Below, piece after piece: positions 14,537 to 37,000 of a stretch of 46,737 nucleotides of DNA (positions within the stretch are counted from its first letter, which is position 1; every line of letters begins with the position of its first letter). The stretch is taken from positions 1 to 46,737 of the forward strand of contig JBKHWX010000094.1 in assembly GCA_046566325.1 (NCBI GenBank), given 5' to 3'. The DNA comes from Actinomycetes bacterium (GTDB lineage: Bacteria > Actinomycetota > Actinomycetes > Actinomycetales > BWSM-131). Both the position numbers and the translations under genes were made by a program. The notes below the pieces were generated by a model. The model made no database searches and was not told the origin of the DNA. It saw only the letters and a program-made list of their open reading frames with translations.

Positions 14537-14620
14537 CCTACTGGCTGACCCACGGGTCCCACCGAGAAGCACGCGCTCTCCCCCGGTGGGCCCGCTTCGG
14601 CCGACGACTACGCTCGCCGC

Positions 14621-15463
14621 GTGCGCATCGACCTGCACACGCACTCCACCGTGTCGGACGGGACCGAGCCCCCGGCGCAGGTGGTGCGGGCGGCCGCGCG
14701 CGCGGGTCTCGACGTCGTCGCCCTCACCGACCACGACTCGACCGCCGGCTGGGACGAGGCAGCGGCCGCCGCCGTCCGGTACGGCGTGCTTCTCGTGCGC
14801 GGGATGGAGGTCTCCAGCACCTACCGCGGCATCAGCGTCCACCTGCTCAGCTACCTGCACGACCCCGCGTCCCCTGGCCTGCTGCAGGAGGTCGACGCGG
14901 CACGCGAGTCGCGCGAGTACCGGGCGCGGCGCATGGTCGAGCGGATCGCGGACGACTACGACCTCGAGTGGGGGGACGTCGAGGCGCAGGCGGCCCAGGG
15001 GACGACGCTCGGCCGACCCCACATCGCCGACGCCCTGGTCGCCCGCGGCCACGTGGAGAGCCGGGACGAGGCGTTCGCGACAATTCTCCGCAGCCGGTCG
15101 CGCTACTTCGTGCCGCACTACGCCCCGGACGCCGTCAGCGCCGTCCGGCTCATCCGGGAGGCGGGCGGCGTTCCCGTGTTCGCCCACCCACTGGCCAGCG
15201 CCCGGGGCCGTGTCGTCGGGGACGACGCCATCGAGGAGCTCGTCGACGCGGGCCTCCTGGGCCTCGAGGTCGACCACCGGGACCACGACGACGCCGCTCG
15301 GCGGCACCTGCGCGACGTCGCCGCGGCGCACGACCTCCTCGTCACCGGGTCGAGCGACTACCACGGCGCCGGCAAGCAGAACCGGCTCGGGGAGTTCACC
15401 ACCGACCCCGAGGCGCTGCAGCGCATCGAGGACGACGGCACGCTCGAGGTCGTCCGTCCGTGA
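14621..15463 (+). CDS. PHP-domain metal-dependent phosphoesterase (TrpH/YciV-like)
   Basis: 'MRIDLHTHSTVSDGT', 'VVALTDHDS', 'GMEVS', 'VHLLSY', 'GGVPVFAHP', 'GLEVDHRDH' and 'TGSSDYHG' give the PHP His/Asp metal-ligand pattern. Confidence 0.9.
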   Translation: MRIDLHTHSTVSDGTEPPAQVVRAAARAGLDVVALTDHDSTAGWDEAAAAAVRYGVLLVRGMEVSSTYRGISVHLLSYLHDPASPGLLQEVDAARESREYRARRMVERIADDYDLEWGDVEAQAAQGTTLGRPHIADALVARGHVESRDEAFATILRSRSRYFVPHYAPDAVSAVRLIREAGGVPVFAHPLASARGRVVGDDAIEELVDAGLLGLEVDHRDHDDAARRHLRDVAAAHDLLVTGSSDYHGAGKQNRLGEFTTDPEALQRIEDDGTLEVVRP

Positions 15464-15533
15464 CGGACGTCGTGCTCGTCAGGCCGTCGGACGTCCCGCC
15501 CCTACCTCGCCGTCGCGCTCGGGACCAGGCACG

Positions 15534-15935
15534 TCAGGCCTCCGGACCAGGCATCACCTCGAACCACACCCGCTTGCCGGAGACGTTGCTCCGGCAGCCC
15601 CAGCGGTCCGCGAGCGCGTCGACCATCTGCAGGCCCCGGCCGCCGACGGCCCACAGGTCCTCCTCCAAGGGGACGACCTGGCCGGGCAGGACGTCGTCCA
15701 CCTCGACCCGCACCGCCCCCCGCCGAGCTCTGCCGGCCCGCAGGACGACCGGCCCGTTACCGTGGCGGATGGCGTTCGTCACCAGCTCGCTGGTCAGCAG
15801 GACCGCCACGTCCGCGGCGGCCGAGTCGACCCCCCAGCTCTCGAGCGTCGCGTCGAGCGCGCGCCGGGCCCGGGCGACCTCCGTCGGGTCGTCCTGCAGC
15901 CTGGCGATCACCTCCACGCCGGGATTGTCCAGCAC
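15534..15935 (-). CDS. RsbW/SpoIIAB-like anti-sigma-factor serine kinase (HATPase_c_2 domain)
   Basis: 'ARARRALDATLESWGVD...DVAVLLTSELVTNAIRHG...VRVEVDD...GGRGLQMVDALADRWG' is the N-box and G-box pattern of small anti-sigma kinases. The start is taken as GTG 15935. The rest of the 553-aa listed ORF is shadow. Confidence 0.7.
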   Translation of the reverse strand: MLDNPGVEVIARLQDDPTEVARARRALDATLESWGVDSAAADVAVLLTSELVTNAIRHGNGPVVLRAGRARRGAVRVEVDDVLPGQVVPLEEDLWAVGGRGLQMVDALADRWGCRSNVSGKRVWFEVMPGPEA

Positions 15936-16025
15936 GTCCAGGAGACCGGCAGAATGGGACGGCGTGACGACGTCCCGGTCGGAGGACCTCGTCGACAACC
16001 CGAACGGGCCCTGTTCTGGACCCGG

Positions 16026-16847
16026 ATGGAGGAGTGCGGACACGTGAACCGGGCGGCTCGTGTGCTGGCGGTGGCCAACCAGAAGGGAGGGGTCGCGAAG
16101 ACGACGACGGTCGCGTCGCTCGGCGCGGCGTTCTCGGAGCAGGGGCTGCGCGTGCTGCTGGTCGACCTCGACGCCCAGGCCTGTCTCACGTTCTCGCTCG
16201 GGATCGACGCCGACGAGGTCGAGTGCAGCGTCCACGACGTCCTGGTCGGGAGGGCGAAGGCCGCCGACGCGCGGCTCGAGGCGGACGACGGCGTCGACCT
16301 GCTTCCCGCCACGATCGACCTGGCTGGCACCGAGGCCCAGCTCCTGATGCGGCCCGGTCGCGAGTACGTGCTGAGGTCCGCGCTCGAGGACGTCGAGCCG
16401 GACTACGACGTCGTCCTGCTCGACTGCTCGCCGTCGCTCGGCGTCCTGACCCGGAACGCCCAGACCGCCGCGGACGAGGGCCTCGTCCCGCTCCAGTGCG
16501 AGATGCTCAGCCACCGCGGTGTCGGGCAGCTGCTCGACACGATCGCCGACGTCCAGCGGATCCTGAACCCCGACCTCGTGGTCCGCGGCGTCCTGCCCAC
16601 GATGTTCGACTCGCGCACCAGCCATGCGCGCGCTGTGCTCGCCGACGTGGGGGAGCGCTACGCCGTGCCCGTGCTCGCGCCGCCCATCCCGAAGTCGGTG
16701 CGGTTCGCCGAGGCGCCCGCGGTGGGCCGCTCGATCCTGACGACGGCCCGGGGGTCGAAGGGCGCCGCTGCCTACCGCGACGTCGCCGCCGACCTGCTGC
16801 AGCAGTGGAAGCTCGTGCCGGGACGGCGACCCGCGGCCCGCCTGTGA
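16026..16847 (+). CDS. ParA/Soj-family P-loop ATPase
   Basis: The deviant Walker A 'VANQKGGVAKTTT' is present, with 'LLVDLDAQA', 'DVVLLDCSPSLG' and 'IPKSVRFAEAPAVGRSI'. The start is ATG 16026 or GTG 16044. Confidence 0.9.
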   Translation: MEECGHVNRAARVLAVANQKGGVAKTTTVASLGAAFSEQGLRVLLVDLDAQACLTFSLGIDADEVECSVHDVLVGRAKAADARLEADDGVDLLPATIDLAGTEAQLLMRPGREYVLRSALEDVEPDYDVVLLDCSPSLGVLTRNAQTAADEGLVPLQCEMLSHRGVGQLLDTIADVQRILNPDLVVRGVLPTMFDSRTSHARAVLADVGERYAVPVLAPPIPKSVRFAEAPAVGRSILTTARGSKGAAAYRDVAADLLQQWKLVPGRRPAARL

Positions 16848-16869: not shown

Positions 16870-18561
16870 TCAGGGCTCCGAACCTCCGGTGTCCACCGCG
16901 ACGCCCTCGACCCTGCGCGTGCGACGCCGGCGCCGGCCCGCGCCGTCGCCCTGTGAGGTCGTGGCCGCGGGCCCGTTGCCCTGGTCGCCCTCGGCCGCAG
17001 CGTGACCGTCGACGGGGCCTTCGACGGGACGCCCGCCCCGAGTGCGTCGCCGCGTCCGCGTCCGCGGGCGCTGTTCGCGCGGCTCCTCCTGTCCCTCGTC
17101 GCGGCCCGGGCCGTGCCCCTCGCCGTGTCCAGCGCGATGCCGGTCGCCGCGTCGCGACCGTTCGCCGTCCCGCTCCCGCGAGCGATGCCGTCCACCGGTC
17201 TCGCCGAGGTCTTCGACAGCCTCGGCCGCCAGGCCCGCGCGCGTGCGCTCGGCGCGGGGTAGGACCCCCTTCGTGCCCTCGGGGATGTCCAGGTCCGAGT
17301 AGAGGTGCGGTGAGGTCGAGTAGGTCTCGACCGGTGCGGGGATGCCGAGGGCCAGCGCCTTGTCGACGAGGCTCCACCGCGGGACGTCGTCCCAGTCGAC
17401 GAACGTGACCGCGGTGCCCTTCTTGCCCGCTCGTCCCGTGCGGCCGATCCGGTGGACGTAGATCTTCTCGTCCTCGGGGCACTGGTAGTTGACGACGTGC
17501 GTCACGTCGTCCACGTCGATGCCCCGCGCAGCGACGTCGGTGGCGACGAGCACGTCGACCTTGCCGCGACGGAAGGCGCGAAGAGCCTGCTCGCGCGCCG
17601 CCTGCCCGAGGTCGCCGTGGATCGCGGCGGCGGCGAAGCCGCGGTCGGCGAGCTCCTCGGCGACCTTCGCGGCGGTGCGCTTGGTCCTCGTGAACACGAT
17701 GGTGAGGCCTCGCCCCCGGGCCTGCAGGAGGCGGGCCAGCACCTCGGCCTTGTCGAGCGAGTGCGCCCGGTAGACGAACTGGGCGGTGGTCTTGACGGTC
17801 GGGCTGACGTCGTCCGGCTCGGAGGCCCGGATGTGCGTCGGCTGGCTCATGTAGCGGCGTGCCATCGCGACGACGGGCCCTGGCATGGTCGCCGAGAAGA
17901 GCATCGTGTGACGGTCCTCGGGCGTCTGGGCGAGGATCCGCTCGACGTCGGGCAGGAACCCCAGGTCCAGCATCTCGTCGGCCTCGTCCAGGACGACGGT
18001 CCGCACCGAGGCGAGGGACAGGTGGCCCTGCTGGGCGAGGTCGAGGAGGCGGCCGGGCGTCCCGACGACGACCTCGACCCCCGCGTGCAGCGTCTCGATC
18101 TGCGGCTCGTAGGCACGGCCTCCGTAGACGGTGAGGACCCGGGCCGGGCGCAGCGACGCGGCCTGCTCCAGGTCGGCGGCCACCTGCACGGCGAGCTCAC
18201 GCGTGGGGACGACGACCAGCGCCTGGGGGCGGCCCGCAGCCTTCATCCGGTCGTACCCGTCCTCGCCGGGGCCCCTGACGTGCTGCAGCAGGGGGAGTCC
18301 GAACCCCAAGGTCTTGCCGGTGCCGGTCTTGGCCTGCCCGATGATGTCGTGGCCGGCGAGCGCCACCGGGAGCGTCAGAGCCTGGATCGGGAACGGGTGG
18401 GTGATCCCCGCCCGCGCGAGGGCCTCGACGAGGAGCGGGTCGACGTCGAAGTCGGCGAACGTACGCCCGGAGGTCGCGTCGTCCGCCTCGGGACCCGAGG
18501 CGGCAGGGTCGGCAGGCACCGGCCCTGCCGAGGCTGAGGTCGGATGGTCGGTAACGGTCAC
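16870..18561 (-). CDS. rhlE: DEAD-box ATP-dependent RNA helicase with an Arg/Gly-rich C-terminal tail
   Basis: The Q-motif 'FADFDV...GITHPFPIQ' is present, with 'AKTGTGKT', 'PTRELA', 'VLDEADEMLD', 'SAT', 'ARGID' and 'HRIGRTGRAG'. GTG 18561 is preceded by GAGG 7 nt upstream. The symbol is given by analogy only. Confidence 0.92.
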   Translation of the reverse strand: MTVTDHPTSASAGPVPADPAASGPEADDATSGRTFADFDVDPLLVEALARAGITHPFPIQALTLPVALAGHDIIGQAKTGTGKTLGFGLPLLQHVRGPGEDGYDRMKAAGRPQALVVVPTRELAVQVAADLEQAASLRPARVLTVYGGRAYEPQIETLHAGVEVVVGTPGRLLDLAQQGHLSLASVRTVVLDEADEMLDLGFLPDVERILAQTPEDRHTMLFSATMPGPVVAMARRYMSQPTHIRASEPDDVSPTVKTTAQFVYRAHSLDKAEVLARLLQARGRGLTIVFTRTKRTAAKVAEELADRGFAAAAIHGDLGQAAREQALRAFRRGKVDVLVATDVAARGIDVDDVTHVVNYQCPEDEKIYVHRIGRTGRAGKKGTAVTFVDWDDVPRWSLVDKALALGIPAPVETYSTSPHLYSDLDIPEGTKGVLPRAERTRAGLAAEAVEDLGETGGRHRSRERDGERSRRGDRHRAGHGEGHGPGRDEGQEEPREQRPRTRTRRRTRGGRPVEGPVDGHAAAEGDQGNGPAATTSQGDGAGRRRRRTRRVEGVAVDTGGSEP

Positions 18562-18765
18562 GTAGTGCCTCGTGCTTCTGCTTGGCGGGGCCTCACGCCT
18601 GGCCGGATGCCGGCGGGCCGCTCCGCGTCTGGTCGGGGCCGATCGGGCTTCCGACCGGGCACACCGCGAACCAGCCAAGTTTAGCCCGCAAGTACGGTCC
18701 TGCTCGCCACGCGCCGTCCCCGCGCGTCACCCAGAGCCACCTCGGCCCGTTTTCGCCGTGGTTTC

Positions 18766-21433: not shown

Positions 21434-23287
21434 GTGACACAGCCCGCCGGTGGCACGGGACGGTCCGCTGGGCCGAAGGCAGGCGGATCGCAGCGCCGGG
21501 ACACGCAGCGCGGGAACCAGCACAGCCAGGGCCAGCACAGCCAGAACCAACAGCACCAGGACCAGCACCACCGACACACGCACCGCCAGGACCACCACCG
21601 CCTACCGGTGCTGCAGGGGGTGCTGCCCCTCGACAGGGCGCACCTGCCGGCCGACCTGCTGGCCGGCGTGACGCTCGCCGCCCTCGGCATCCCGGAGGTC
21701 CTCGGCTACGCCAAGATCGCGGGTATGCCGGTCGTCACCGGCCTCTACACGATCCTCCTGCCGATGGCGGTGTTCGCGCTGCTGGGCTCCTCGCGGCACC
21801 TCGTGGTCGGCGCCGACTCGGCCACGGCGGCCATCCTCGCAGCAGGTCTCGCGGGTGTGGGTGTGGCCACCGGCTCGAGCAGGTACGTCTCCCTCGCCGG
21901 CCTGGCGGCGCTGATCACCGGAGGTCTGCTGCTGCTGGCGAGGGTCGTCCGGCTCGGCTTCCTCGCGAACTTCCTCTCCCGCACGGTCCTGGTCGGGTTT
22001 CTCACCGGCGTGGGTGTCCAGGTCGCCGCCGGGCAGGTGGGCGAGATGCTCGGCGTGGACGGCGCAGGGCACGGGACGATCGGCAAGCTGACCGCCGTCG
22101 CCCGGCACATCAGCGGCACGAACGCCGCGACCGTCGTCGTGTCAGCCGCCGTCGTCGTCCTCGTCGTGGGCATGCGGTACGTGACGCGACGCGTGCCCGG
22201 GGCGCTGATCGCCGTGGTAGGGGGCATCGCCGTCGGCCGGTACGGACATCTGCAGGCGCACGGCGTCCGCATTCTCGGCCCGGTTCCGAAGGGCCTGCCC
22301 CACCTTGCGCTCCCCACTCTCAGCCTGACCGCGGCCACAGGCCTGGTGGGCACCGCCGTGTCGATGTTCGTCGTCGTCCTCGCGCAGAGCTCTGCCACCT
22401 CACGTGCCTACGCGGCACGCTATGGGGAGAGCTTCGACGAGAACACCGATCTCGTCGGTCTCGGCGCCGCGAACATCGCGGCCGCGGCCACGGGAACGTT
22501 CGTCGTCAACGGCAGCCCGACCAAGACCGAGATGGTGGACGGCGCGGGGGGCCGCAGCCAGGTGTCACAGCTGACGACGTCCCTCGTCGTCCTCGTCGTC
22601 CTGCTGTTCCTGACCGGGCCGCTGGCCTACCTGCCGCTCGCCGTTCTCGCCACGATCGTCTTCCTCATCGGGGTCGAGCTGGTCGCCGTCCGCAGCATGC
22701 GACAGATCCTTGCGGTGCGCCGAAGCGAGTTCGTCGTCGCGCTGCTCACCGCCGCTGCCGTCGTCCTCGTGGGTGTCGAGCAGGCGATCGTCTTCGCGAT
22801 CCTCGCTTCGATCGTCGACCATCTCCGCCACAGCTACGACCCGCGCAGCACGGTTCTCGTGCCCACCGCCGAGGGCCACTGGAAGTCCGTCCCCGCGGGT
22901 CCCGGTCAACGGACGTCCGGGAGCCTGCTGATCTTCCGTTTCGGCTCCAGCCTCTACTACGCGAACGCCCACGAGCTGCTGCGCGACGTCAGACGGTTCG
23001 TGCAGGACGGTGAGACGCTCACCGTGTTCTGTCTGGACGCGGTGGCGGTCGGGGACGTCGACTTCACCGCGGGCGCGGCGCTGCGGCGCGTCCACGACAC
23101 GCTGCACGGGGCCGGCGTCCGGCTCGTCTTCTCGGAGGTGGCGGAGCCGGTTCGCAAGGAGCTGGACCGCTACGGGATCACCGCGCTGGTCGGTGCCGAC
23201 GCGTACTACCCGGCCCTGGCCGACGTCCTCGCAGCCTTCGCGCCGTCTCCACGCGTGGCGGACGAGGGCGCCTCGGCAGAAACCTGA
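21434..23287 (+). CDS. SulP-family anion transporter with a C-terminal STAS domain
   Basis: 'DLLAGVTLAALGIPEVLGYAKIAGMPVVTGLYT', multiple TM segments and a STAS-like C-terminus ('LLIFRFGSSLYYANAHELLRDV...DVDFTAGAALRRVHDTLHGAGVRLVFSEV') are present. The start is ambiguous. GTG 21434 adds a His/Gln-rich extension, and GTG 21608 gives a conventional N-terminus. Confidence 0.88.
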   Translation: MTQPAGGTGRSAGPKAGGSQRRDTQRGNQHSQGQHSQNQQHQDQHHRHTHRQDHHRLPVLQGVLPLDRAHLPADLLAGVTLAALGIPEVLGYAKIAGMPVVTGLYTILLPMAVFALLGSSRHLVVGADSATAAILAAGLAGVGVATGSSRYVSLAGLAALITGGLLLLARVVRLGFLANFLSRTVLVGFLTGVGVQVAAGQVGEMLGVDGAGHGTIGKLTAVARHISGTNAATVVVSAAVVVLVVGMRYVTRRVPGALIAVVGGIAVGRYGHLQAHGVRILGPVPKGLPHLALPTLSLTAATGLVGTAVSMFVVVLAQSSATSRAYAARYGESFDENTDLVGLGAANIAAAATGTFVVNGSPTKTEMVDGAGGRSQVSQLTTSLVVLVVLLFLTGPLAYLPLAVLATIVFLIGVELVAVRSMRQILAVRRSEFVVALLTAAAVVLVGVEQAIVFAILASIVDHLRHSYDPRSTVLVPTAEGHWKSVPAGPGQRTSGSLLIFRFGSSLYYANAHELLRDVRRFVQDGETLTVFCLDAVAVGDVDFTAGAALRRVHDTLHGAGVRLVFSEVAEPVRKELDRYGITALVGADAYYPALADVLAAFAPSPRVADEGASAET

Positions 23288-23759: not shown

Positions 23760-26700
23760 GTGTTCGGTGCTGTCCTCGAGGCCTTGGTCGAGCCGTCTCG
23801 CCGGCTCGGCGTGCCGACCCTGCCGCGCCGCATCCTCGACCTCGCCGTCCCCCAGCGCGTGGGAGGCCGCCGGGCGTGGGTGAGCGAGGGCCGGGCGGTC
23901 ATCGAGGTTCACCTCGACGGCGCGGACGGCGAGCGGGTCCGCCGCGTGGAGCAGGCGCTGGAGGCGTGCCCCGGCGTCGAGTGGGCCCGTGTCAACGGCC
24001 CGCTCGGCCGGGTCATCGCGGCGCTCGGGAGCGGGAGCCCTCCTCTCGCCGAGCTCGTGGACCTGGTCGAGCGGGCCGATGCTGCGACGGGTCACCGGGT
24101 CGGCCCGGACCTTCCCCTCGACCGGGGTCCGGAGCAGCGTGCCCTCGCCGCCCTCGTCGCCGACGGGCTCGGGCTCGCGCTCACCGGCATCGGCAGGGTC
24201 ACCGGTCTCGGGGCGGTGCCGCTGGAGCTCGCCTCGGCGGTGACGGCCGTGGACACCGTGCCGCGGCTGCGCGCGCTCGCCGAGAGGCTGCTCGACCGGC
24301 CCGCCGCGGACATGACGATCGCCGTGGCGAACGCCGGCGCGCAGGGCCTCGCCCAGGGCGTCCTGGGGCTCGCGCTCGACGCCGCGTACCGGGTCCTGAG
24401 CCTCCGCGAGGCGAACGCGAACGCGACGGCGTGGCGGCAGCGGCAGAACCGGTACCTCGCGACGCCCGCGCGTGCGGCGGCGGCACCGGTCGCCGTGCGC
24501 CGGCCCACGCCGCTGCCTCCCGGCCCGATCGAGCAGTGGGGTGACCTCGCCGGCCTGCTCGGCGCGGTCACCTTCCCCGTGGCGCTCGCCGCCACGCACG
24601 ACCCGCGGCAGGCGGCCGGACTCGCCCTTGCCTCGTTGCCCAAGTCCGCCCGGCTCGGCCGGGAGGGCTTCGCCACCTGGCTCGGGTACAGCCTTGCCCG
24701 CCGCGGGTCGGTGGTGCTCGAGCCGGCGGCGCTGCGGCGGCTCGACCGGACGAGCACCGTGGTCCTCGACTCCGCCGTCCTGCTGACCGGCGCCCATCTC
24801 CTGGGCACCGTGCTCGCCTTGCCCGGGGCGAGGGCGGACGAGGTCACCCGGCGGATCTACGGGATGTTCCACGGGGAGGACCCCTGGGTCGTGCGCCAGG
24901 ACGGGGCGTGGCGGTTGGGTCCTGTCGACGAGCTCGCTCCTTCCGACCAGCTGGCTCCTCTCGACGAAGCCGGCGTCGCGTCGCGGCAGGCCGCGCGCGA
25001 GCGACAGCGGCTGGAGGCCGAGGCGGGCGTCGTCGTCCTCGGGCTCACCGAGAACGGCCGCCTGGTCGGCCTCGCAGCCGTGGTCCCCGAGCCGACGGAG
25101 TCGTGGGAGGCGCTCGCGGCCGCGTGTCACCGCGCCGGTCGCTCCCTCGTCGTCGCCGGCCCACCGCTGTCGACGTGGTCATCCGTGGCCGGGGCCGTGA
25201 TGCCGGGCGGGGCGGACCTGCTGGCGACGGTTCGGGCGCTGCAGCGGGACGGCGGCGTGCTGCTCGTCTCGCGCGACGGGCGGGCGCTCGCGAACGCGGA
25301 CATCGGGGTCGGCGTCGACACCGAGGACGGCGGTGCCCCCTGGGGGGCGCACGTGCTCGTCGGCGGCGACCTCGGCCACGTCGCCCTGCTGATCGACGCC
25401 TCCGCCGTCGCGGCAGCGGTGAGCAGGCGCAGCGTGACGCTCGCGCAGGCAGCCACCGGGATCGGAGGGCTCGCGGTCACGGCCAGCGCCCTGCGTCCTC
25501 CCACACCGAGGGCACTACTCGCCGTCAACATGGCGGCGGCGGCCGCCCTCGCCCACGGCGCGTGGGCCGCCCACCAGCTCACGCGGCGTCCGCTGGTCCC
25601 GCCCGTCTCCAAGGTCCCCTGGCATGCCATGCCGGTCGACCTCGTCCTGGACCGCGTGGGCACGCAGCCGTCCGGGCTGGACATGCCGGAGGCCCGCCGG
25701 CGCAGCCGCGGGGGCGACGGGGAGGCGGTCGGGCCCACCAGCCTGCTGTCCGCGGTGGCCGAGGAGCTGTCCAACCCCCTGACGCCGATCCTTGCGGCCG
25801 GGACCGCCCTGTCGGCGGCGGTCGGCTCCGTCGTCGACGCAGGTCTCGTCGCCGGAGCGGCCCTGGCAAGCGCACTCGTCGGCGGGCTGCAGCGGCGCGG
25901 CACGGACCGGGCGCTGGCGGACCTGCTCGCCCAGTCCGCGGTCACGGCTCGAGTCCGGAGGGACGGCGCGGTCGTCGCGCTGCCCGCCGACCAGCTCGTG
26001 CCGGGCGACATCCTGCTGCTCGCGCCCGGGGACGTCGTCCCCGCCGACTGCCGTGTCGTCGAGGCCGCCGACCTCGAGCTCGACGAGTCGTCACTGACCG
26101 GGGAGCCCTTCCCGGTGGTCAAGAGCACGGCCCCCAGCTCCGCCGCGGCCCTCGCCGAGCGCACGTCGATGGTCTACGAGGGGACGACGGTCGCTGCCGG
26201 CCGCGGTGTCGTCGCGGTGGTGGCGACGGGCACGTCGACCGAGTCCGGCCGGACCATCGCGGCGACGAGGGCCGGAGCCGGGGCGGGCGGGGTCGAGGCG
26301 CGGCTCGCGCAGATCACGCGGGTCACGGTCCCTCTCACGCTCTCGTCCGCCGTCGCGGTGGTCGGGGCAGGGTTGCTGCGGGGTCGGTCCATCGCCAGCA
26401 CGGCAGGCGCGGCGGTGAGCCTCGCGGTCGCCGCGGTGCCCGAGGGGCTGCCGTTCCTCGTCAGCGCGGCGCAGCTGGCGGCCGCCCGCCGCCTGTCCGG
26501 ACTGGGTGCGCTGGTCCGCAACCCGCGGACGATCGAGGCGCTCGGGCGGGCCGACGTCCTCTGCTTCGACAAGACCGGCACCCTGACCGAGGGCCGGATC
26601 GCTCTCGGCGCCGTCGCCGGCCCGGACGGCCCACCCGTCAGTCCCGACCGGCTGACGGCGACCCTGCGCCCGGTGCTCGCTGCCGGGCTTCGCGCAACCC

Positions 26701-28235
26701 CGGAGCCCGGTCCCGGACAGCACCTCGCCCACCTGACGGACCGGGCGGTGGCCGAGGGGGCCGCGCTGGCCGACGTCTCTCGCAAGAGCGGCCTCGGCAC
26801 CTGGCACCGGGCCGCGGCGCTGCCTTTCGAGCCGTCCCGAGGGTTCCACGCCACCCTCGGACGCGCCGGACAGGTGGAGGTGCTCAGCGTCAAAGGCGCG
26901 CCCGAGATCGTCCTGCCCCGGTGCGCGGCGGTTGCCCGGGACGGCCGGCGGCTTCCGCTGGACCGGCGGGAGCGGCGGCGGCTGACCCGGCAGGTGGAGC
27001 AGCTGGCGGCGCTGGGCTACCGGGTGCTGGCCGTGGCCGAGCGGGTCGACGAGGCGTGGCCGACGACCGTCGTCGACGACGACGTCCGCGACCTCACGCT
27101 GCTCGGCTACCTCGCGCTCACGGACCCGGTGCGGACCGCGGCGAGGGCGTCGATCACGACGCTCCGGGACGCAGGTGTGCAGATCGTGATGATCACGGGC
27201 GACCACCCCAGCACCGCGGCCTCCATCGCGCGGCGGCTCGACCTGCTCGACGGCCGCGTGGTGGTCACCGGTCCCGAGCTCGACTCCCTCACCGACGAGG
27301 CGCTCGCCCGCAGGCTGCCGGACGTCGCGGTGGTCGCCCGGAGCACGCCTACGCACAAGGTCCGGGTCGTCCAGGCCTTCCAGCAGCTGGGCAGGACCGT
27401 CGCCATGCCCGGGGACGGTGCCAACGACGCTCCCGCCATCCGGCTCGCCGACGTCGGGATCGCGCTCGGACGACGCAGCACGCCCGCCGCCCGTGCCGCC
27501 GCCGACCTCGTGGTCACCGACGACCGCCTCGAGACGATCATCGCCGCGCTCGTCGAGGGGCGTGCGATGTGGGGCTCTGTGCGCAAAGCGCTGGGGATCC
27601 TGGTCGGCGGCAACCTGGGCGAGGTGGCGTTCACCGTGCTGGGCGCGCTCGCGACAGGCGCGTCACCGCTCAACGCGCGGCAGCTGCTGCTGGTCAACCT
27701 GCTCACCGACCTCGCCCCCGCCCTCGCGGTCGCGCTGCGGCCCCCGCAGGCCGCCTCTGTGGACACCCTGCTCACCGAGGGACCCGAGGCGTCGCTGGGC
27801 GCACCGCTCGTGCGGGACGTCAGCATCCGGGCTGCCGGGACGACGCTCGCGGCGACGACGGCGGCCCTGCTCGCCCGGGCGACCGGCAACGCGGCCGGGG
27901 CCGAGACGATCTCCCTGGTGGCGCTCGTCGCGGCACAGCTCGGCCAGACCCTCGTCGCGGGCGGGCCGAGCCGCGGCGTCCTGCTCGCGGGTCTGGGCTC
28001 GGTGGCGGTGCTCGGTCTGGTCGTCCAGGCCCCGGTCCTGAGCGCGTTCTTCGGCTCCACCCCGCTCGGCCTCGGCGGGCTGGCGATCGCCGCGCTGGCA
28101 GCCGGAGGAGCGACGGCCCTGAGCTCCGGTCCCCAGCTCTCCCGGTTCGCGGCCCTCTCGGCGCCGCTCGCTCGTGAGATCGGCATCGCCCCCGTCCGCT
28201 CGCTCCCGCCGGCACCGGCCCGAGCGGCCGCCTAG
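23760..28235 (+). CDS. Very long cation-translocating P-type ATPase (CtpH/CtpI-like) with an N-terminal extension of about 610 aa
   Basis: The canonical half carries 'SSLTGEPFPV' (TGE), 'CFDKTGTLTEG' (phosphorylation Asp at about nt 26568), 'MITGDHPSTA' and 'MPGDGANDAPAIRLADVGIALG'. GTG 23760 has GGGAGG 6 nt upstream. Confidence 0.92.
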   Translation: MFGAVLEALVEPSRRLGVPTLPRRILDLAVPQRVGGRRAWVSEGRAVIEVHLDGADGERVRRVEQALEACPGVEWARVNGPLGRVIAALGSGSPPLAELVDLVERADAATGHRVGPDLPLDRGPEQRALAALVADGLGLALTGIGRVTGLGAVPLELASAVTAVDTVPRLRALAERLLDRPAADMTIAVANAGAQGLAQGVLGLALDAAYRVLSLREANANATAWRQRQNRYLATPARAAAAPVAVRRPTPLPPGPIEQWGDLAGLLGAVTFPVALAATHDPRQAAGLALASLPKSARLGREGFATWLGYSLARRGSVVLEPAALRRLDRTSTVVLDSAVLLTGAHLLGTVLALPGARADEVTRRIYGMFHGEDPWVVRQDGAWRLGPVDELAPSDQLAPLDEAGVASRQAARERQRLEAEAGVVVLGLTENGRLVGLAAVVPEPTESWEALAAACHRAGRSLVVAGPPLSTWSSVAGAVMPGGADLLATVRALQRDGGVLLVSRDGRALANADIGVGVDTEDGGAPWGAHVLVGGDLGHVALLIDASAVAAAVSRRSVTLAQAATGIGGLAVTASALRPPTPRALLAVNMAAAAALAHGAWAAHQLTRRPLVPPVSKVPWHAMPVDLVLDRVGTQPSGLDMPEARRRSRGGDGEAVGPTSLLSAVAEELSNPLTPILAAGTALSAAVGSVVDAGLVAGAALASALVGGLQRRGTDRALADLLAQSAVTARVRRDGAVVALPADQLVPGDILLLAPGDVVPADCRVVEAADLELDESSLTGEPFPVVKSTAPSSAAALAERTSMVYEGTTVAAGRGVVAVVATGTSTESGRTIAATRAGAGAGGVEARLAQITRVTVPLTLSSAVAVVGAGLLRGRSIASTAGAAVSLAVAAVPEGLPFLVSAAQLAAARRLSGLGALVRNPRTIEALGRADVLCFDKTGTLTEGRIALGAVAGPDGPPVSPDRLTATLRPVLAAGLRATPEPGPGQHLAHLTDRAVAEGAALADVSRKSGLGTWHRAAALPFEPSRGFHATLGRAGQVEVLSVKGAPEIVLPRCAAVARDGRRLPLDRRERRRLTRQVEQLAALGYRVLAVAERVDEAWPTTVVDDDVRDLTLLGYLALTDPVRTAARASITTLRDAGVQIVMITGDHPSTAASIARRLDLLDGRVVVTGPELDSLTDEALARRLPDVAVVARSTPTHKVRVVQAFQQLGRTVAMPGDGANDAPAIRLADVGIALGRRSTPAARAAADLVVTDDRLETIIAALVEGRAMWGSVRKALGILVGGNLGEVAFTVLGALATGASPLNARQLLLVNLLTDLAPALAVALRPPQAASVDTLLTEGPEASLGAPLVRDVSIRAAGTTLAATTAALLARATGNAAGAETISLVALVAAQLGQTLVAGGPSRGVLLAGLGSVAVLGLVVQAPVLSAFFGSTPLGLGGLAIAALAAGGATALSSGPQLSRFAALSAPLAREIGIAPVRSLPPAPARAAA

Positions 28236-28297: not shown

Positions 28298-28657
28298 ATG
28301 AGCGGCCCCGAGACCGGGATCAGCATCACCGTAGGACCGGTCGAGATCGACGTGCCGCAGTCCCTGGGGTACTACGCCGGGCTCGGCGCCGCCGTGGCCT
28401 TCGGTGTGCTGGACCCGCCGGTCGCGCTGTTCATCGCCACCATCCCGGTGTTCAAGATGCTCGGCGACGAAGGCAACCCCCAGCCGGTCCGCTTCGTCGG
28501 ACAGCTGCTCCAGGGAGCAGGCAAGCCCGTCGGCAGCGACGGCCAGGGCACCGTGAGGCTGGTCGAACCGCGTCGGGCACGGGAGGGCGTCGGCCGCGCG
28601 GTGCGTGGGATCACGCAGACCGCTCTCACCCCGGTTCTCACTCCCGTCCGCGCCTGA
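28298..28657 (+). CDS. Small membrane protein P3 (119 aa), paralog-like to P1 and P2
   Basis: GGAAGGAGAG lies just upstream of ATG 28298. The core is 'VEIDVPQSLGYYAGLGAAVAFGVLDPPVALFIATIPVF'. Confidence 0.7.
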   Translation: MSGPETGISITVGPVEIDVPQSLGYYAGLGAAVAFGVLDPPVALFIATIPVFKMLGDEGNPQPVRFVGQLLQGAGKPVGSDGQGTVRLVEPRRAREGVGRAVRGITQTALTPVLTPVRA

Positions 28658-28673
28658 GCCGCTCGCGCATGCC

Positions 28674-29873
28674 ATGCTGCCGAGCGTGGCTGCACCCGTG
28701 AGGCTGCCGCCCCTGGTCGAGCCGGGGGAGGAGCTGACGACCGAGGAGGTCCGGCGCTACTCCCGCCACCTGCTGCTGCCCGACATCGGCATGGTCGGCC
28801 AGCGCCGGCTCAAGAACGCCAAGGTCCTGGTGGTCGGCGCGGGCGGCCTCGGGTCCCCGGCGATCACCTACCTGGCCGCGGCCGGCGTCGGCACGATCGG
28901 GATCGTGGACGACGACGTCGTCGAGGAGTCCAACCTGCAGCGCCAGGTGGTGCATCGCACCGCCGACGTCGGGCGAGCGAAGGTCGAGAGCGCGGCGGAC
29001 GCCGTGGCCGCGCTCAACCCGCTCGTGACGGTCCGGCAGCACGCCCTCCGCCTCACCAGCGCCAACGCCGTCGAGGTCGTCGGGCAGTACGACCTCGTGC
29101 TGGACGGCGCCGACAACTTCGCGACGCGCTACCTCGTGAGCGACGCCTGCGAGGTGCTCGGCGTCCCCGAGGTGTGGGCGTCGGTGTTCCGCTTCGACGC
29201 GCAGGTGAGCCTCTTCTGGGCGGGGCACGGGCCGACGTACCGGGACCTGTTCCCCGAGCCACCGCCTCCCGGCTCGGTGCCGTCCTGCGCGGAGGGCGGC
29301 GTCCTCGGCGCCATGGTCGCCTGTGTCGGTTCCGTGATGGCGACCGAGGCAGTCAAGCTCGTCGTCGGTTCGGGCGAGCCGCTGCTCGGACGGCTGCTCG
29401 TCCTCGACGCCCTGTCGATGACCTGGCGGCAGCTTCGGATCCGGCCGCTGCCCGACCGCGCGCCGGTCCGCGAGGTGACGGACGTCGAGGCCTGGTGCTC
29501 GGCCGTCTCGGGGCCGGAGCCTGAGGCGTCCGCCGCCTTGTCGGAGGTCGGGGCTCCCGAGCTGGCCGACCTGCTGCGGGCCCGTCAGCGGGGCGAGGCC
29601 GACTTCGTGCTCGTCGACGTGCGTGGCGACGCGGAGCGGGCGGTCGTCAGCGTCCCCGGCGCCGTCGCCGTCCCCCTCGACGACATCCTGGCCGGGGACG
29701 TCGAGCAGCTGCTCCCGCTGGACCGCCGCGTGATCCTGCACTGCAAGAGCGGTGCTCGCTCCGCCCGTGCCCTGCAGGCCCTGCAGTCGGCGGGCTTCAC
29801 GAACGCCGCCCACCTGCGCGGCGGCGTGCTGGCGTGGGTCGAGGAGGTGGACCCGACCCTGCCGCGGTACTGA
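28674..29873 (+). CDS. moeZ: Adenylyltransferase/sulfurtransferase MoeZ (ThiF/MoeB E1-like domain fused to rhodanese)
   Basis: 'LPPLVEPGEELTTEEVRRYSRHLLLPDIGMVGQRRLKNAKVLVVGAGGLGSP', 'DDDVVEESNLQRQVVH', 'DGADNFATRYL' and 'SCAEGGVLG' are present, with a C-terminal rhodanese domain holding the active-site 'HCKSGARS'. It is close to mycobacterial MoeZ as I recall it. The start is ATG 28674. Confidence 0.93.
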   Translation: MLPSVAAPVRLPPLVEPGEELTTEEVRRYSRHLLLPDIGMVGQRRLKNAKVLVVGAGGLGSPAITYLAAAGVGTIGIVDDDVVEESNLQRQVVHRTADVGRAKVESAADAVAALNPLVTVRQHALRLTSANAVEVVGQYDLVLDGADNFATRYLVSDACEVLGVPEVWASVFRFDAQVSLFWAGHGPTYRDLFPEPPPPGSVPSCAEGGVLGAMVACVGSVMATEAVKLVVGSGEPLLGRLLVLDALSMTWRQLRIRPLPDRAPVREVTDVEAWCSAVSGPEPEASAALSEVGAPELADLLRARQRGEADFVLVDVRGDAERAVVSVPGAVAVPLDDILAGDVEQLLPLDRRVILHCKSGARSARALQALQSAGFTNAAHLRGGVLAWVEEVDPTLPRY

Positions 29874-29931: not shown

Positions 29932-30672
29932 TCAGGACGCCTGGTCGCTGCTCGTGCCCACCCGCACGTCGCCGACGGACGACGTCACCCGGATGTGATG
30001 GGCGGACGCCGAGCTGACCGGGACGGTGGTGTGTGTCTCACCCATGCTCGTCTGCGCCTGGACGTCGTAGGACGTGCCGTCGTCGGGGACGACGAGCAGG
30101 ACGTCTCCGACCGAGGTCGTGACGGCCACCGAGTCGGCCGGGCTGGCCAGCGTGATCGAGACCTCGCCGACCGACGACGTCGCGCGGACCCGCGACGCCC
30201 GAAGCTGGTCCGCCGCGAGCCGGCCCGTCGAGGTCTCCATCGTCACGGAGGGGTAGGCCCCGCGGACGGACACCTCGCCGACCGACGAGGACGTCTCCAG
30301 GTGCATGCCCTCGGGGACCCGCAGGACCATCTGGGTGGAGCAGTCCCCGAACCAGTGCCGCGCGCAGGACGCCTCGAGGTGCAGCGTGTCGCCGACCCGA
30401 CGCTCCTCGAAGCGAGGCAGGCGCCAGGCGCCCTCCCGATGGAGCTGCACCTCCACCCTGTCGCTCGCCGTGCTCGGCTCGACGGAGAGGCTCCCGACAT
30501 CCGTGCTCGCGACGAGGGTCTGGACGCCGGCAGAGGCGACCGTGAGGCGCTCGGTGCGCTCCGCGCGAGCCAGCTTCGTCGCCACGGCGTACGCACCGCC
30601 GAGGACGAGGACGGTGACGAGGAGGCCACCGAGGATGCGGACGGGTGCCTTGACGGCCATGGGTGTGCTCAT
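29932..30672 (-). CDS. DUF4097-family beta-repeat protein (LiaG-like), membrane-anchored
   Basis: The N-terminal TM is 'ILGGLLVTVLVLGGAYAV'. Repeated 'SSVGEVSV / SSVGEVSI / TSVGDVLL / SSVGDVRV' beta-strand units follow. Its ATG overlaps the response-regulator stop (ATGA at 30669-30672). Confidence 0.8.
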   Translation of the reverse strand: MSTPMAVKAPVRILGGLLVTVLVLGGAYAVATKLARAERTERLTVASAGVQTLVASTDVGSLSVEPSTASDRVEVQLHREGAWRLPRFEERRVGDTLHLEASCARHWFGDCSTQMVLRVPEGMHLETSSSVGEVSVRGAYPSVTMETSTGRLAADQLRASRVRATSSVGEVSITLASPADSVAVTTSVGDVLLVVPDDGTSYDVQAQTSMGETHTTVPVSSASAHHIRVTSSVGDVRVGTSSDQAS

Positions 30673-33947: not shown

Positions 33948-34040
33948 GCGCTGGTCGCCGGCCGTCGAGGTGACGGCGGCCCGGGGCGGCGGCAGGCTCC
34001 GCGCCAGAGCACTGTCGGACCCCTGTGGTGGACTCCGACC

Positions 34041-37000
34041 GTGACATCGCTCGCCCGCTCCACCCGTCCCGGCTCCGGGGATCGGAACGACGTCGGAGAC
34101 CCCGCGGTCCCGCGGCTCGTGCGGTCCTCCCGGCCGTTCCGACCCGTCGACCTCGACCCGACACAACAGCGCGTCGTGGCGCTCCGGCGGGGGACCGGAC
34201 CCGTCGTCGTGCTGGGGGCCCCCGGTACCGGCAAGACCTCGGTCCTCGTCGAGTCGGTGGTCGCACGCGTGAGCCGCGACGGCGTCGACCCCAGCCGCCT
34301 GCTCGTCCTCTGCGCCTCCCGCCGGGCCGCAGCCGAGCTGCGCGACCGGGTGACCTCCCGGCTGGAGCGCACCGTGGTGGAGCCGCTCTCGAGGACCCCT
34401 CACTCGTACGCCTTCTCGCTGCTCAGCAGGGCCGCTGTCTCGATGGGCGAGCCGGCGCCCCGGCTGATGTCCGGTCCGGAGCAGGACCGCATGCTGGCGG
34501 ACCTGCTCTCGGGCCACGCCGACGGCGTAGGCCGTCGCCCCGACTGGCCGGCGTCCGTGCTGCCCGCGCTCGGGCTTCGCGGCTTCCGCGACGAGCTGCG
34601 GGACCTGTTGATGCGCGCCCTGGAGCACGGGCTCGGTCCTCGGGACCTGGCCGAGCTGGGACGGCGACACGCGCGGCCCGAGTGGGTGGCGGCGTCCGTC
34701 GTGCTTCGCGAGTACCTGGAGGTGACCGCTCTCGCGACCCCCGGCGCCTACGACCCGGCGGCGATCCTCGGGACGGCGGCGGACGTGCTGGAGGCCGACG
34801 ACGAGCTGCTGCGGGCCGAGCGGGAGCGCTGGGAGCTCGTCGCCGTCGACGACCACCACGAGTCCGGTCAGGCGGTCGCGCGGCTGCTCGACCTCCTCGT
34901 CGGCGGCGGCAAGGACCTGCTCGTGACCGGCGACCCCGACTCCAGCACGCAGACCTTCCGGGGTGCCGACCCCGGCCTCGTCGTGGCCGCCGCGGACCGT
35001 TACCGCCGCTCCGACGGGGCGCCGGCCGTCGTCGTCCGCCTGGGGATGCGGTGGCGGGCGAGCGCGCAGGTCGAGCGCGTCACGCGTCGTGTCGCCGAGA
35101 CTGTCGGCGCGCTCGGCGAGGTGGGGCACCGGGCCGCACGGCCGGCCGGTTCGGCCGGTTCGGCCGGTTCAGCCGGTTCAGCCGGGTCGGCCGGGTCGGC
35201 CGGGGACGGACGTCGGGACGGCGGACCTGCGGAAGACGGCGACGTCACGTCGGCGGTGCTGCGGTCGGCCAGCCAGGAGGCGTCCTACGTCGCCGCGGTG
35301 ATCCGACACGCCCACCTGATCGAGGGCATGCCCTGGTCGCAGATGGCCGTGCTCGTCCGCACGACCGGACGCACCCGAGCCCTGCGTCGCGCCCTGGCCG
35401 CCGCCGGGGTCCCGCTGACACTGCCTCCGGCGGACGTGCCCCTGCGCGACGAGGCCGCCGTCCGGCCTCTCCGGCTCGCGCTGCGAACGGCACTGGACCC
35501 GTCGGCGCTGGACGCGGACAGCGCCGTCGACCTGCTGTCCTCGCCGCTCGGCGGCGGGGACGCGCTCGCCGTCAGGCGGTTGCGCCAGGCGCTGCGTGCC
35601 CGGGACCGGGCGACGGCCGGAGCAAGGTCGAGCGACGCCCTGCTCGTCGAGGCGCTGGGCGACGCGCGCCGGCTCGAGCCGCTCCCTCCGGCGACACGGC
35701 AGCCGGCGGCCCGCGTCGCCGGCGTCATCGCCGCGGCACGGGAGGCGGCCGTGCAGCCGGCGGCGACCGGGGAGAGCGTGCTGTGGGCCCTGTGGTCGGC
35801 CACCGGCCTGGCCGAGACGTGGCGGCGCCAGGCGCTCGCCGGCGGCGCCACCGGCCGGCGGGCGGACCGCAACCTGGACGCTGTGGTCGCCCTGTTCGAC
35901 GCGGCGGCGCGCTTCGCGGACCGGCTGCCGGCCGCGGGACCGCAGGGGTTCCTCGAGCACCTGGAGGCCCAGGACGTGCCGGCGGACACGCTCGCCGAGG
36001 CCGCACCCGACGGCGAGGCGGTCTGCCTCCTGACTCCCCAGACCGCAGCGGGCCGGGAGTGGGACCTCGTCGTGCTCGTCGGCCTGCAGGAGGGGGTGTG
36101 GCCCGACCTGCGCCTTCGGGGGTCCCTGCTCGGGGCTTCGGCGCTGGCGGACCTGCTGACCGGTCGAGGTGTGGCCGCCGGCGCTCTCGCCGGGGCTCGT
36201 CGCCAGGTGCTCGCGGACGAGCGCCGCCTGCTCCACGTGGCCGTCAGCCGCGCGCGACACCGGCTCGTCGCCACCGCCGTGCGGAACGCGGACGAGCTGC
36301 CGTCGTCCTTCCTCGACCTCGTCGACCCGCTGCCGGACGACGGCAGCGGTCACGGCGGCGACGGGGAGCGGCGCTTCGCACACGTCCCCCGGATGGTGAG
36401 CCTGCCCGCTCTCGTCGCCGAGCTGAGACAGGTCCTTCTGACTGCGGAAGGGGTGGCAGACGCAACCGGCCGGCCCGTCACCGCTTCCCGACGGGCGGAG
36501 GCCGCTCGGCAGCTCGCGCGCCTCGCTGCCGCCGGAGTTCCCGGAGCCCATCCCGACGACTGGTACGGCCTGCCCGGCATCTCCGACGCCGGCCCGCTCC
36601 GGGAGGAGGAGGCTCCCGTGCGCGTCTCCCCGTCCAGGGTGGAGGCGTTCGGCCGCTGCCCCCTGCGCTGGCTGCTCGAGGCGTCGGGAGGCACGCCCGG
36701 CGACAGCACCGCCCAGACGGTCGGCAACCTCGTGCACGAGATCGCCGCCGAGGCCCCGTCGGGAACCGTGGAGCAGCTGACCGAGAAGCTGGAGCAGCGG
36801 TGGCACCGCCTCGGCCTGCCGGACACGTGGGTGAGCGCCCGCGAACGGGCCCGGGCCGAGGCGATGCTGCGGCGGCTGGCCGCGTACATCGCGGCCAACA
36901 CGAGGCATCTCGTGGCCGTCGAGCAGGACTTCTCGGTCGACCTCGGCCGGGCGGAGCTTCGCGGCCGCGTCGACCGGCTGGAGCGGGACGCCGACGGCCG

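Follow-up and report, generated by a model that had tools for sequence, protein, structure and literature searches.

We analyzed a 46,737-nucleotide stretch of actinobacterial DNA (contig JBKHWX010000094.1 of assembly GCA_046566325.1, lineage BWSM-131; the whole stretch is referred to below as the window), and in particular a gene on its forward strand that encodes a P-type ATPase of 1491 amino acids (aa), about twice the length of an ordinary P-type ATPase. The evidence suggests, with a probability of roughly 80%, that this protein is a two-module ATPase of the FUPA24 type, in which a dead module derived from a P1B pump is the non-catalytic partner of a complete P2A-like pump to which it is fused. 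The gene divides into its two modules as follows:

23760..28235, forward strand: whole gene, a two-module P-type ATPase (FUPA24 / CtpH-CtpI-like) of 1491 aa with a GTG start; taken from the list of open reading frames (ORFs), with the start supported by the N termini of homologues.
23760..25595, forward strand: N-module, aa 1-612, a degenerate P1B-type ATPase without an actuator (A) domain; defined by profile, AlphaFold2 model, and Foldseek.
25596..28232, forward strand: canonical P2-like ATPase, aa 613-1491; defined by Pfam, TIGR01494, and motifs.

Nucleotides 23760-25590 are codons 1-610 of the ORF 23760..28235 (+), which lies in DNA of high G+C content (69-77% in the window), and the N-terminal peptide MFGAVLEALVEPSRRLGVPTLP is common to the homologues P0001 and P0004, which supports the GTG start. 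The length of the protein falls in the size range of FUPA24 (about 1400-1650 aa); its relatives form stop-to-stop ORFs of 1430-1930 aa, with called proteins of about 1390-1620 aa. The Pfam domains E1-E2_ATPase, Hydrolase, Cation_ATPase, and Cation_ATPase_C all lie within aa 621-1452. Searches with the single sequence of aa 1-610 gave no match in Pfam, and in NCBIfam and the PDB they returned only weak matches to CopZ (E 0.076) and PacS (E 1.2). The nearest relative among the protein-search matches is 55-58% identical over the N-module, so a close relative of the source genome appears to be absent from the searched protein collections. The window's own protein was likewise not among these matches.

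The relationship of the N-module to P1B pumps is apparent from sequence profiles. A profile of 15 homologues of aa 1-610 was searched against all PDB sequences at E<=10, and its matches are P1B copper pumps and HMA domains only, with no P2 pump among them even at that threshold. The P1B Cu-ATPase matches span E 1.4e-10 to 5.8e-8 and include rice HMA4 (E 1.4e-10), ATP7B (E 9.8e-9), and Archaeoglobus fulgidus CopA (3j09, E 1.4e-8). PDB HMA domains are matched at E 5e-8 to 1e-2, with the HMA domains of Bacillus subtilis CopA at E 5e-8 and CopZ at E 2e-3. In the CopA match, profile positions 320-545 align onto CopA 386-651 and place D337 of the N-module on the aspartate of the DKTGT motif. Two conserved blocks stand out among the aligned homologues, LPKAARLGREGFA..LARRG.VVLD..ALRRLDR.DTVVLD..VL.TG and P.G.RL...VR.LQ..G.VLLVS....ALAAAD.GVG...PPWGAH, and they coincide with the blocks named in a preliminary description of the same DNA made without database searches.

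The predicted structure of the N-module leads to the same family. An AlphaFold2 model of aa 1-610, built with the 15-sequence alignment, has a predicted local distance difference test score (pLDDT) of 85.1 and a predicted template modeling score (pTM) of 0.85. The model begins with an extra strand, to which a beta-alpha-beta-beta-alpha unit at aa 45-108 is joined, and continues with five helices at aa 123-232 and a 23-residue non-helical linker, after which come helices at aa 256-314, a Rossmann-like alpha/beta domain with a small beta-rich insert at aa 315-538, and a helical hairpin at aa 539-609. The overall P1B fold, consisting of a helix bundle, a phosphorylation (P) domain, and a small nucleotide-binding (N) domain, is thus present in the model. 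When the model was compared with the PDB by Foldseek, whole P1B pumps ranked first, followed by KdpB and then by P2 pumps. The best match was ATP7B (7si6, E 4e-12), with CopA (7r0g and 3j09, E 8e-12), Legionella pneumophila CopA (4bbj and 3rfu, E about 1e-10), ZntA (E 8e-10), and CadA (E 1e-9) next; the top structures (7si6, 7r0g, 3j09, 4bbj, 3rfu, 4umw, and 7qbz) all had a probability of 1.00 at E 4e-12 to 1e-9. Both the model and the structure search therefore show aa 1-610 to have a fold like that of a P1B pump. The N-module can be divided into the following sub-regions, all on the forward strand:

23868..24089: HMA-like ferredoxin-type domain without CxxC, aa 37-110; from the model, PDB profile matches, and Pfam.
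24126..24455: helical region, aa 123-232, whose four to five helices correspond to MA/MB/M1/M2 in P1B pumps; from the model.
24456..24524: linker in place of the A domain, with the motif (E)RPxPLPxGPxERY, aa 233-255; from the model and hhalign.
24525..24701: helices resembling M3/M4, aa 256-314, in which LPK (aa 293-295) takes the CPC/PEGLP position; from hhalign.
24702..24794: first half of a pseudo-P domain, aa 315-345, with LRRLDR...VVLD337SAVLLTG as the DKTGT equivalent; from alignment with both CopA 386-430 and the DKTGT segment of the C-terminal half.
24795..25031: pseudo-N (nucleotide-binding-like) domain, aa 346-424, small and P1B-sized, without an SEHP/HP motif; from the model and the CopA alignment.
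25032..25373: second half of the pseudo-P domain, aa 425-538; from the profile hidden Markov model (HMM) alignment and hhalign.
25374..25586: M5/M6-like helical hairpin, aa 539-609; from the model and hhalign.

The HMA-like domain is modeled with strands at aa 37-42, 45-49, 73-79, and 84-89 and helices at aa 57-68 and 96-108, and the Pfam HMA family is matched individually by five of the 15 homologues (best E 1.4e-4). No cysteine is found in the columns of the N-module alignment equivalent to CxxC (columns 52-60), and the only cysteines in aa 1-612 of the window protein are C70 and C456. The preliminary description had placed an HMA ferredoxin-like fold without CxxC near residues 45-90, which agrees with the unit modeled here at aa 45-108 and with the profile and Pfam matches. 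It had also seen no TGE actuator motif in the extension, and this too holds: the string TGE does not occur in aa 1-612, and the model contains no beta-rich domain between helices 201-232 and 256-279, where the linker is found instead of an A domain. The linker is itself conserved, with R248 present in 84/84 and G255 in 77/84 of the N-module sequences from which all conservation counts given here were taken.

The five helices of the first helical region are modeled at aa 123-148, 155-166, 168-178, 180-197, and 201-232. Over 19 residues, the Kyte-Doolittle average of helix 123-148 peaks at 1.52, and none of the other four exceeds 1.0. The hairpin at the end of the module has helices at aa 539-575 and 582-609, which align with transmembrane segments (TM) 5 and 6 of the C-terminal half and reach best 19-residue values of 1.3-1.45. 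Over the N-module as a whole, four helices have best values of about 1.3-1.5, compared with 1.5-2.1 for the transmembrane segments of the canonical half, and their insertion into the membrane would be plausible.

The P-domain motifs of a P-type ATPase can be followed through the N-module in their usual order, and most of their catalytic residues have been replaced. The position of the phosphorylated aspartate, D337, is the exception, being Asp in 80/84 sequences, and it is the only residue kept from DKTGT, as KTGT is gone. The position two residues further on (339) is Asp or Glu in 48/84 sequences (about 57%), giving a DxD-like HAD motif I, and is Ala in the window protein. TGD has become AGP in the window protein (AG. 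across the family), the local sequence being VVAGPP, and the P..K...V..LQ..G pattern is represented by P..L...VR.LQ..G. GDGxND is replaced by SRDGRA (S.... across the family), with LLVSRDGRALANADIGVG standing at GDGxNDAPAL..ADVGIA. The CPC/CPx motif of TM4 is not present and LPK is found in its place, with its proline invariant (P294, 84/84) and its lysine nearly so (K295, 77/84). The pseudo-N domain forms a beta/alpha unit at aa 342-421 in the model that aligns with the N domain of CopA, with the SEHP residues substituted. Other residues of the pseudo-P domain are strongly conserved: A509, L510, A513, D514, G516, and G518 form a cluster in which each is found in 84/84 sequences, and R492 and Q495 are found in 82/84 and 83/84, respectively. 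In all, conservation across orders of Actinomycetota reaches 90% or more at 51 positions of the N-module. The preliminary description had stated that the catalytic residues of the extension were lost; this stands for KTGT, TGD, and GDGxND, and has to be amended for the phospho-Asp position, which is kept. Ligand or phosphoryl binding by the N-module is therefore possible, because this Asp is retained, often with an acidic residue at +2.

The correspondence between the two halves of the protein is also detectable directly. BLASTP of aa 1-610 against aa 611-1491 without composition correction gives an alignment of 590 columns at 25% identity (E 5e-5), but with composition correction nothing is significant (best E 0.067), and the plain self-alignment was dropped as evidence since its significance vanishes under the correction. 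For this reason we used profiles for the self-comparison. A profile of 77 N-modules aligned by hhalign with a profile of the matching C-terminal halves (C-halves) is colinear from TM3/TM4 through TM6, with a score of 56.4 and an E-value of 9e-6 (E 3e-6 to 9e-6 across runs), while 30 column shuffles scored 13-25 and a reversed profile 24.8, placing the similarity of the halves well above the shuffled background. In the HMM alignment, the segment ARRGSVVLEPAALRRLDRTSTVVLDSAVLLTG pairs with ...E.LG.VD.ICFDKTGTLT.G of A. fulgidus CopA, so that D337 equals the DKTGT aspartate, and in hhalign the same segment pairs with the protein's own DKTGT segment. At the TGD region, RLVGLAAVVPEPTESWEALAAACHRAGRSLVVAGPP pairs with LLGYLALTDPVR...VMITGDHP in hhalign, and at the GDGxND region GVLLVSRDGRALANADIGVGV pairs with TVAMPGDGANDAPAIRLADVGIALG in both alignments. 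The P-domain motif order in the extension had been noted in the preliminary description, and all three of its pairings are reproduced by these independent alignments. Further upstream, hhalign pairs ALASLPKSARLG with AVAAVPEGLPFL, which sets the LPK of the N-module at the CPC/PEGLP position. The A domain of the C-half lies almost wholly opposite gaps and has nearly no counterpart in the N-module.

The C-half, by comparison, looks like an intact and putatively active cation pump of the P2A type, and the earlier assignment of this half to the P2-like pumps is borne out by the presence of all P2 motifs and of the C-terminal multi-helix domain. Its motifs comprise TGE (780-782), PEGLP (894-898), DKTGT (937-941), KGAPE (1045-1049), TGD (1146-1148), K1200, GDGAND (1218-1223), NLGE in TM5 (1285-1288), and VNLLTD in TM6 (1312-1317), and these canonical motifs are invariant in 75-79 relatives. 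The nearest solved structure is LMCA1 of Listeria (E 7e-101), followed by SPCA1, MgtA, and SERCA (E 7e-101 to 1e-76 over the set). The C-half contains the Glu of PEGLP, N..E in TM5, and N..TD in TM6, residues at what we take to be the Ca2+-site positions of SERCA. Among NCBIfam models, the protein passes the generic TIGR01494 and no equivalog cut-off, scoring 377 bits against TIGR01522 (PMR1-type Ca2+-ATPase; cut-off 798), 321 bits against TIGR01116 (cut-off 703), and 307 bits against TIGR01524 (cut-off 611).

Related loci were collected by scanning species-representative genomes with a six-sequence core alignment, which gave 265 relatives, and the best 80 of these were examined. All but one of the 80 come from Actinomycetota, in genera that include Sinomonas, Pseudonocardia, Actinomycetospora, Streptomyces, Micromonospora, Amycolatopsis, Prauserella, and Saccharothrix, and in more than 70 of the 80 loci the N-module and the canonical half are encoded in one ORF. 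The remaining locus (L074; contig JAYWEH010000716.1, 6.9 kb) is a complete fused member from a metagenome-assembled genome labeled Deltaproteobacteria, for which a binning error or horizontal transfer is possible. An exhaustive profile search of representative clusters found 575 at E<=1e-30 and 1073 at E<=1e-10. A second homologue search with the profile added two further proteins and contained no Mycobacterium entry. Three proteins, P0025 (1236 aa), P0106 (1823 aa), and P0135 (1848 aa), have the N-module at an odd position or an odd total length, with the module at residues 472-1082 in P0025; these may be other architectures or gene-calling run-ons.

The N-module is clearly under purifying selection. 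Its mean pairwise identity among relatives is 41%, compared with 61% for the C-half. The ratio of nonsynonymous to synonymous substitution rates (dN/dS), estimated by the Nei-Gojobori method from 98 close pairs that are not phylogenetically independent and hence serve as a descriptive measure, has a median of 0.30 (interquartile range 0.26-0.36) for the N-module versus 0.19 for the C-half. Every sub-region of the N-module has a median between 0.27 and 0.43, with the pseudo-N domain highest at 0.43 and the pseudo-P domain at 0.29.

The N-module also exists as a gene of its own. Four such loci were verified (L002 and L003 represent the same gene region and were counted jointly):

L001, 6001-7857: stand-alone N-module in Actinopolymorpha sp. 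B11F2.
L002, 3966-5840 (equal to L003, 6001-7875): stand-alone N-module in metagenome contigs, followed by a gene of opposite orientation.
L060, 5272-7101: stand-alone N-module in the complete chromosome of Dactylosporangium sp. AC04546, again followed by a gene of opposite orientation.
L084, 5001-6854: stand-alone N-module of 617 aa, with a complete fused member of the family 940 bp downstream of it.

The stand-alone genes encode about 610-625 aa, end exactly at the ...RRP fusion boundary, and retain all module-specific motifs, and no remnant of a canonical half was detectable beside L001, L002, or L060. They are named as hypothetical proteins at NCBI and as "cation-transporting ATPase I" at JGI. 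The L060 copy is nested among fused modules of Pseudonocardiales, at 54-57% identity, and the L084 stand-alone copy is 44% identical to that of L001 as against 39.5% to its own fused neighbor. A nearest-neighbor analysis of 221 N-modules found 26 N-only candidates, many of which may be fragments, scattered over the set with a few small N-only groups. A single clade of stand-alone modules was rejected given this scattered placement, for which reason several origins are likely.

The arrangement that we propose is as follows. The C-module (aa 613-1491) is a complete P2A-like cation pump and would be the sole part of the protein able to hydrolyze ATP and to transport, and the N-module (aa 1-612) would derive from a separate P1B (Cu+-type) pump gene that became fused ahead of a P2-like pump. 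Chan and colleagues are said to have described FUPA24 in 2010 in similar terms, as the fusion of two ATPase genes, type I at the N terminus and type II at the C terminus, of which the latter alone kept its function. The N-module is still folded as a P1B pump, with an HMA-like domain, helix bundle, P domain, and small N domain, having lost the CxxC/CPC cysteines, KTGT, TGD, GDGxND, and the entire A domain, which is now a conserved Pro-rich linker with an invariant Arg. Because it is without an A domain, Mg2+-binding and phosphoryl-transfer residues, and metal ligands, the N-module would be incapable of the phosphorylation/dephosphorylation (Post-Albers) cycle, and it would not bind soft metals; we infer from these losses that it is catalytically dead. 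As the module is predicted to be incompetent for the cycle yet is folded, under selection, and autonomous, it may be a built-in non-catalytic partner (pseudo-protomer) that transports nothing itself. Its helices would lie beside the active pump in the membrane, and its dead P, N, and HMA-like domains would serve on the cytosolic side as a platform for docking or regulation, through which the active pump is modulated or stabilized; this partner or regulatory role we infer as well. Dead paralogous modules are familiar from other active machines, such as the degenerate nucleotide-binding site of heterodimeric ABC transporters and the pseudokinase domain of JAK. The likeness of these to the present protein, a dead module kept under selection beside an active one, is an analogy only and involves no homology.

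Several observations weigh against this arrangement or qualify it. The N-module helices are weakly hydrophobic, which leaves their insertion into the membrane uncertain. The phospho-Asp position is kept in 95% of relatives, about 57% of them with an acidic residue at +2. The probable assignment to FUPA24, the family of CtpH and CtpI of Mycobacterium tuberculosis, follows from the architecture, the taxonomic range, and the names that homologues bear in the source databases (for example "cation-transporting ATPase I"). Members of the family are without experimental work (PMC13460109; Palmgren 2023), and both the inactivity of the module and its regulatory or scaffold role are putative. The retained aspartate leads to the main rival explanation, which is that the N-module is not fully dead and that a pocket of D337, D514, R492, and Q495 binds Mg2+, a phosphoryl group, nucleotide, or another ligand, making the module a sensor that gates the active pump or, when it stands alone, another target. 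This would account for the near-constancy of D337 (80/84) and the Asp or Glu at 339 (48/84), for the invariant A509-L510-x-x-A513-D514-x-G516-x-G518 together with R492 and Q495, for the low dN/dS of the pseudo-P domain (0.29), and for the keeping of the pocket residues in the stand-alone copies. The Mg2+-binding aspartates of GDGxND, the Thr and Asp of TGD, and the Lys and Thr of KTGT have, however, all been replaced, Ala occupies +2 in the window protein, the nucleotide motif of P1B N domains (SEHP/HP) has disappeared, and the pseudo-N domain is the most relaxed part of the module (dN/dS 0.43). On balance we consider a ligand-sensing module unlikely, while regarding it as the foremost of the alternatives.

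The other explanations are considerably weaker. If the N-module were a functionless relic, the decaying half of a pump awaiting deletion, its faster evolution (41% versus 61% identity; dN/dS 0.30 versus 0.19) and the loss of all catalytic motifs would be expected, but a relic is difficult to reconcile with a dN/dS far under 1 in every sub-region, with 51 positions at least 90% conserved across orders of Actinomycetota, with a fold predicted confidently from only 15 sequences, with retention of the fusion in more than 70 of 80 loci, and with the persistence of the module as a separate intact gene in several genomes, and we judge it very improbable. About as poorly placed, and if anything slightly less probable, is an origin of the N-module as a decayed internal tandem duplicate of the P2-like pump. 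The N-profile and the C-half of the same protein align colinearly (E 3e-6 to 9e-6), and "AVN" in the last helix aligns with "LVNLLTD" of TM6, both of which are compatible with a duplication, yet in the PDB the N-profile matches P1B pumps and no P2 pump at E<=10, the HMA-like domain is a P1B hallmark, the N domain is of P1B size, Foldseek ranks P1B pumps above KdpB and KdpB above P2 pumps, and the C-half is P2A-like at E 1e-100. The preliminary description had left the origin as "fusion or duplication" of a P1B-like pump that decayed in front of a P2-like one; since the N-module is P1B-like by PDB profile and Foldseek while the C-half is P2A-like at E 1e-100, the evidence favors fusion of two different pump genes. 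Its reading of the extension as a degenerate P1B-like module on a P2-like pump is otherwise supported by the profiles, the model, and the fold search. Finally, the similarity could be an artifact of a composition rich in Ala, Gly, and Arg at high G+C (69-77% in the window), or of an error in sequencing or gene calling that joined two genes, and the absence of significance in the composition-corrected BLASTP of the halves would fit this. Such an artifact is hardly credible and is refuted by the column shuffles of the same composition (13-25 versus 56), by the agreement of independent PDB profile matches with the Foldseek search, and by the single-ORF fusion in more than 70 independent genomes.

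The proposed fusion of a dead P1B-derived module to a P2A-like pump has close precedents. CtpH and CtpI of M. tuberculosis are classed as FUPA24 (TC 3.A.3.24), are twice the usual length, and have their functional motifs in the C-terminal part (PMC3573892, citing Chan et al. 2010). AlphaFold models described in a 2026 review show an N-terminal degenerate P-type ATPase-like region and a canonical C-terminal region in both proteins, neither of which has been characterized according to that review (PMC13460109), and the two lie on an isolated branch of the P-type tree and are maybe a separate family (Palmgren 2023). The architecture of a degenerate P1B pump joined to a P2 pump is thus already published for FUPA24 / CtpH-CtpI, and the window protein is a new member. 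It shares with FUPA24 (TCDB 3.A.3.24; CtpH, Rv0425c, and CtpI, Rv0107c) the double length, the motifs in the C-half, the degenerate P-type ATPase in the N-half, and the distribution in Actinomycetota, and at JGI homologues of its N-module are called "cation-transporting (P-type) ATPase I". The linker that replaces the A domain, the kept TM4 proline and phospho-Asp, the quantified purifying selection, and the stand-alone copies are additions made here that are not mentioned in the literature consulted for FUPA24. Relative to the P1B-1 Cu+-ATPases (A. fulgidus and L. pneumophila CopA, ATP7B, and plant HMA4), the N-module has the same overall fold, with its domains in the same order (an HMA domain and helices, then the P/N domains and a closing helix pair), and at profile level it resembles them in the HMA domain as well as in the P/N domains. 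Unlike them, it has no CxxC, CPC (LPK instead), KTGT, TGD, GDGxND, SEHP/HP, A domain, or TGE, and it is a homologue of P1B Cu+-ATPases, not a functional member. The C-half resembles the P2A Ca2+-ATPases (LMCA1, SPCA1, and SERCA) in all catalytic motifs and Ca2+-site residues and differs from them in falling under every NCBIfam equivalog cut-off.

A broader and more tentative idea, which we consider possible but would not favor at present, is that the dead P1B-like module is an autonomous, selectable "pseudo-pump" membrane protein that is used either fused to or separately beside active P-type ATPases, where it would sense a signal or clamp a partner by means of its Asp pocket and Arg linker. 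If true, it would be the first case in which a P-type ATPase has given rise to a pseudo-enzyme accessory subunit, and the stand-alone genes would define a protein family without a present annotation. The pumps of the CtpH/CtpI type are the last uncharacterized P-type ATPases of M. tuberculosis and maybe a family of their own, and a folded, selected, presumably non-catalytic P1B-derived module of about 600 residues, with no A domain, a kept phospho-Asp, and a separable gene, offers initial experimental work on these pumps a set of concrete constructs and hypotheses.

The genes that surround the ATPase gene in the window show no comparable constancy. Six window neighbors were sought in 83 related loci, up to 6 kb from the gene, and none is conserved, L084 alone sharing the SulP gene, and a conserved gene neighborhood therefore finds no support in these loci. 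Genes noted around the ATPase gene in the window are:

21602-23287, forward strand: SulP-family sulfate permease with an STAS domain, immediately upstream of the ATPase gene.
28605-29873, forward strand: ThiF/MoeB-type adenylyltransferase fused to a rhodanese domain (MoeZ-like), directly downstream.
34025-41092, forward strand: ORF of 2355 aa with UvrD-helicase and PD-(D/E)XK nuclease domains at aa 1152-2297 (AdnB/RecB-like).
13899-16847, forward strand: ORF of 982 aa with a ParA/MinD-type ATPase domain (AAA_31/CbiA) at aa 721-945 only.
29932-30672, reverse strand: DUF4097 "toastrack" protein.
16870-18678, reverse strand: DEAD-box helicase.

The SulP gene that flanks the family locus L084 (3141-4787, reverse strand) is 65% identical to that of the window, and the pairing of the ATPase gene with a MoeZ-like neighbor is not conserved in the related loci. 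The first 1150 aa or so of the ORF at 34025-41092 have no Pfam match at E<=1e-5, and this ORF may be two genes read as one or a real fusion. The N-terminal region of about 720 aa in the ORF at 13899-16847 has no domain match, and part of it may be an upstream run-on in high-GC DNA. The DUF4097 protein and the DEAD-box helicase look like ordinary housekeeping context.

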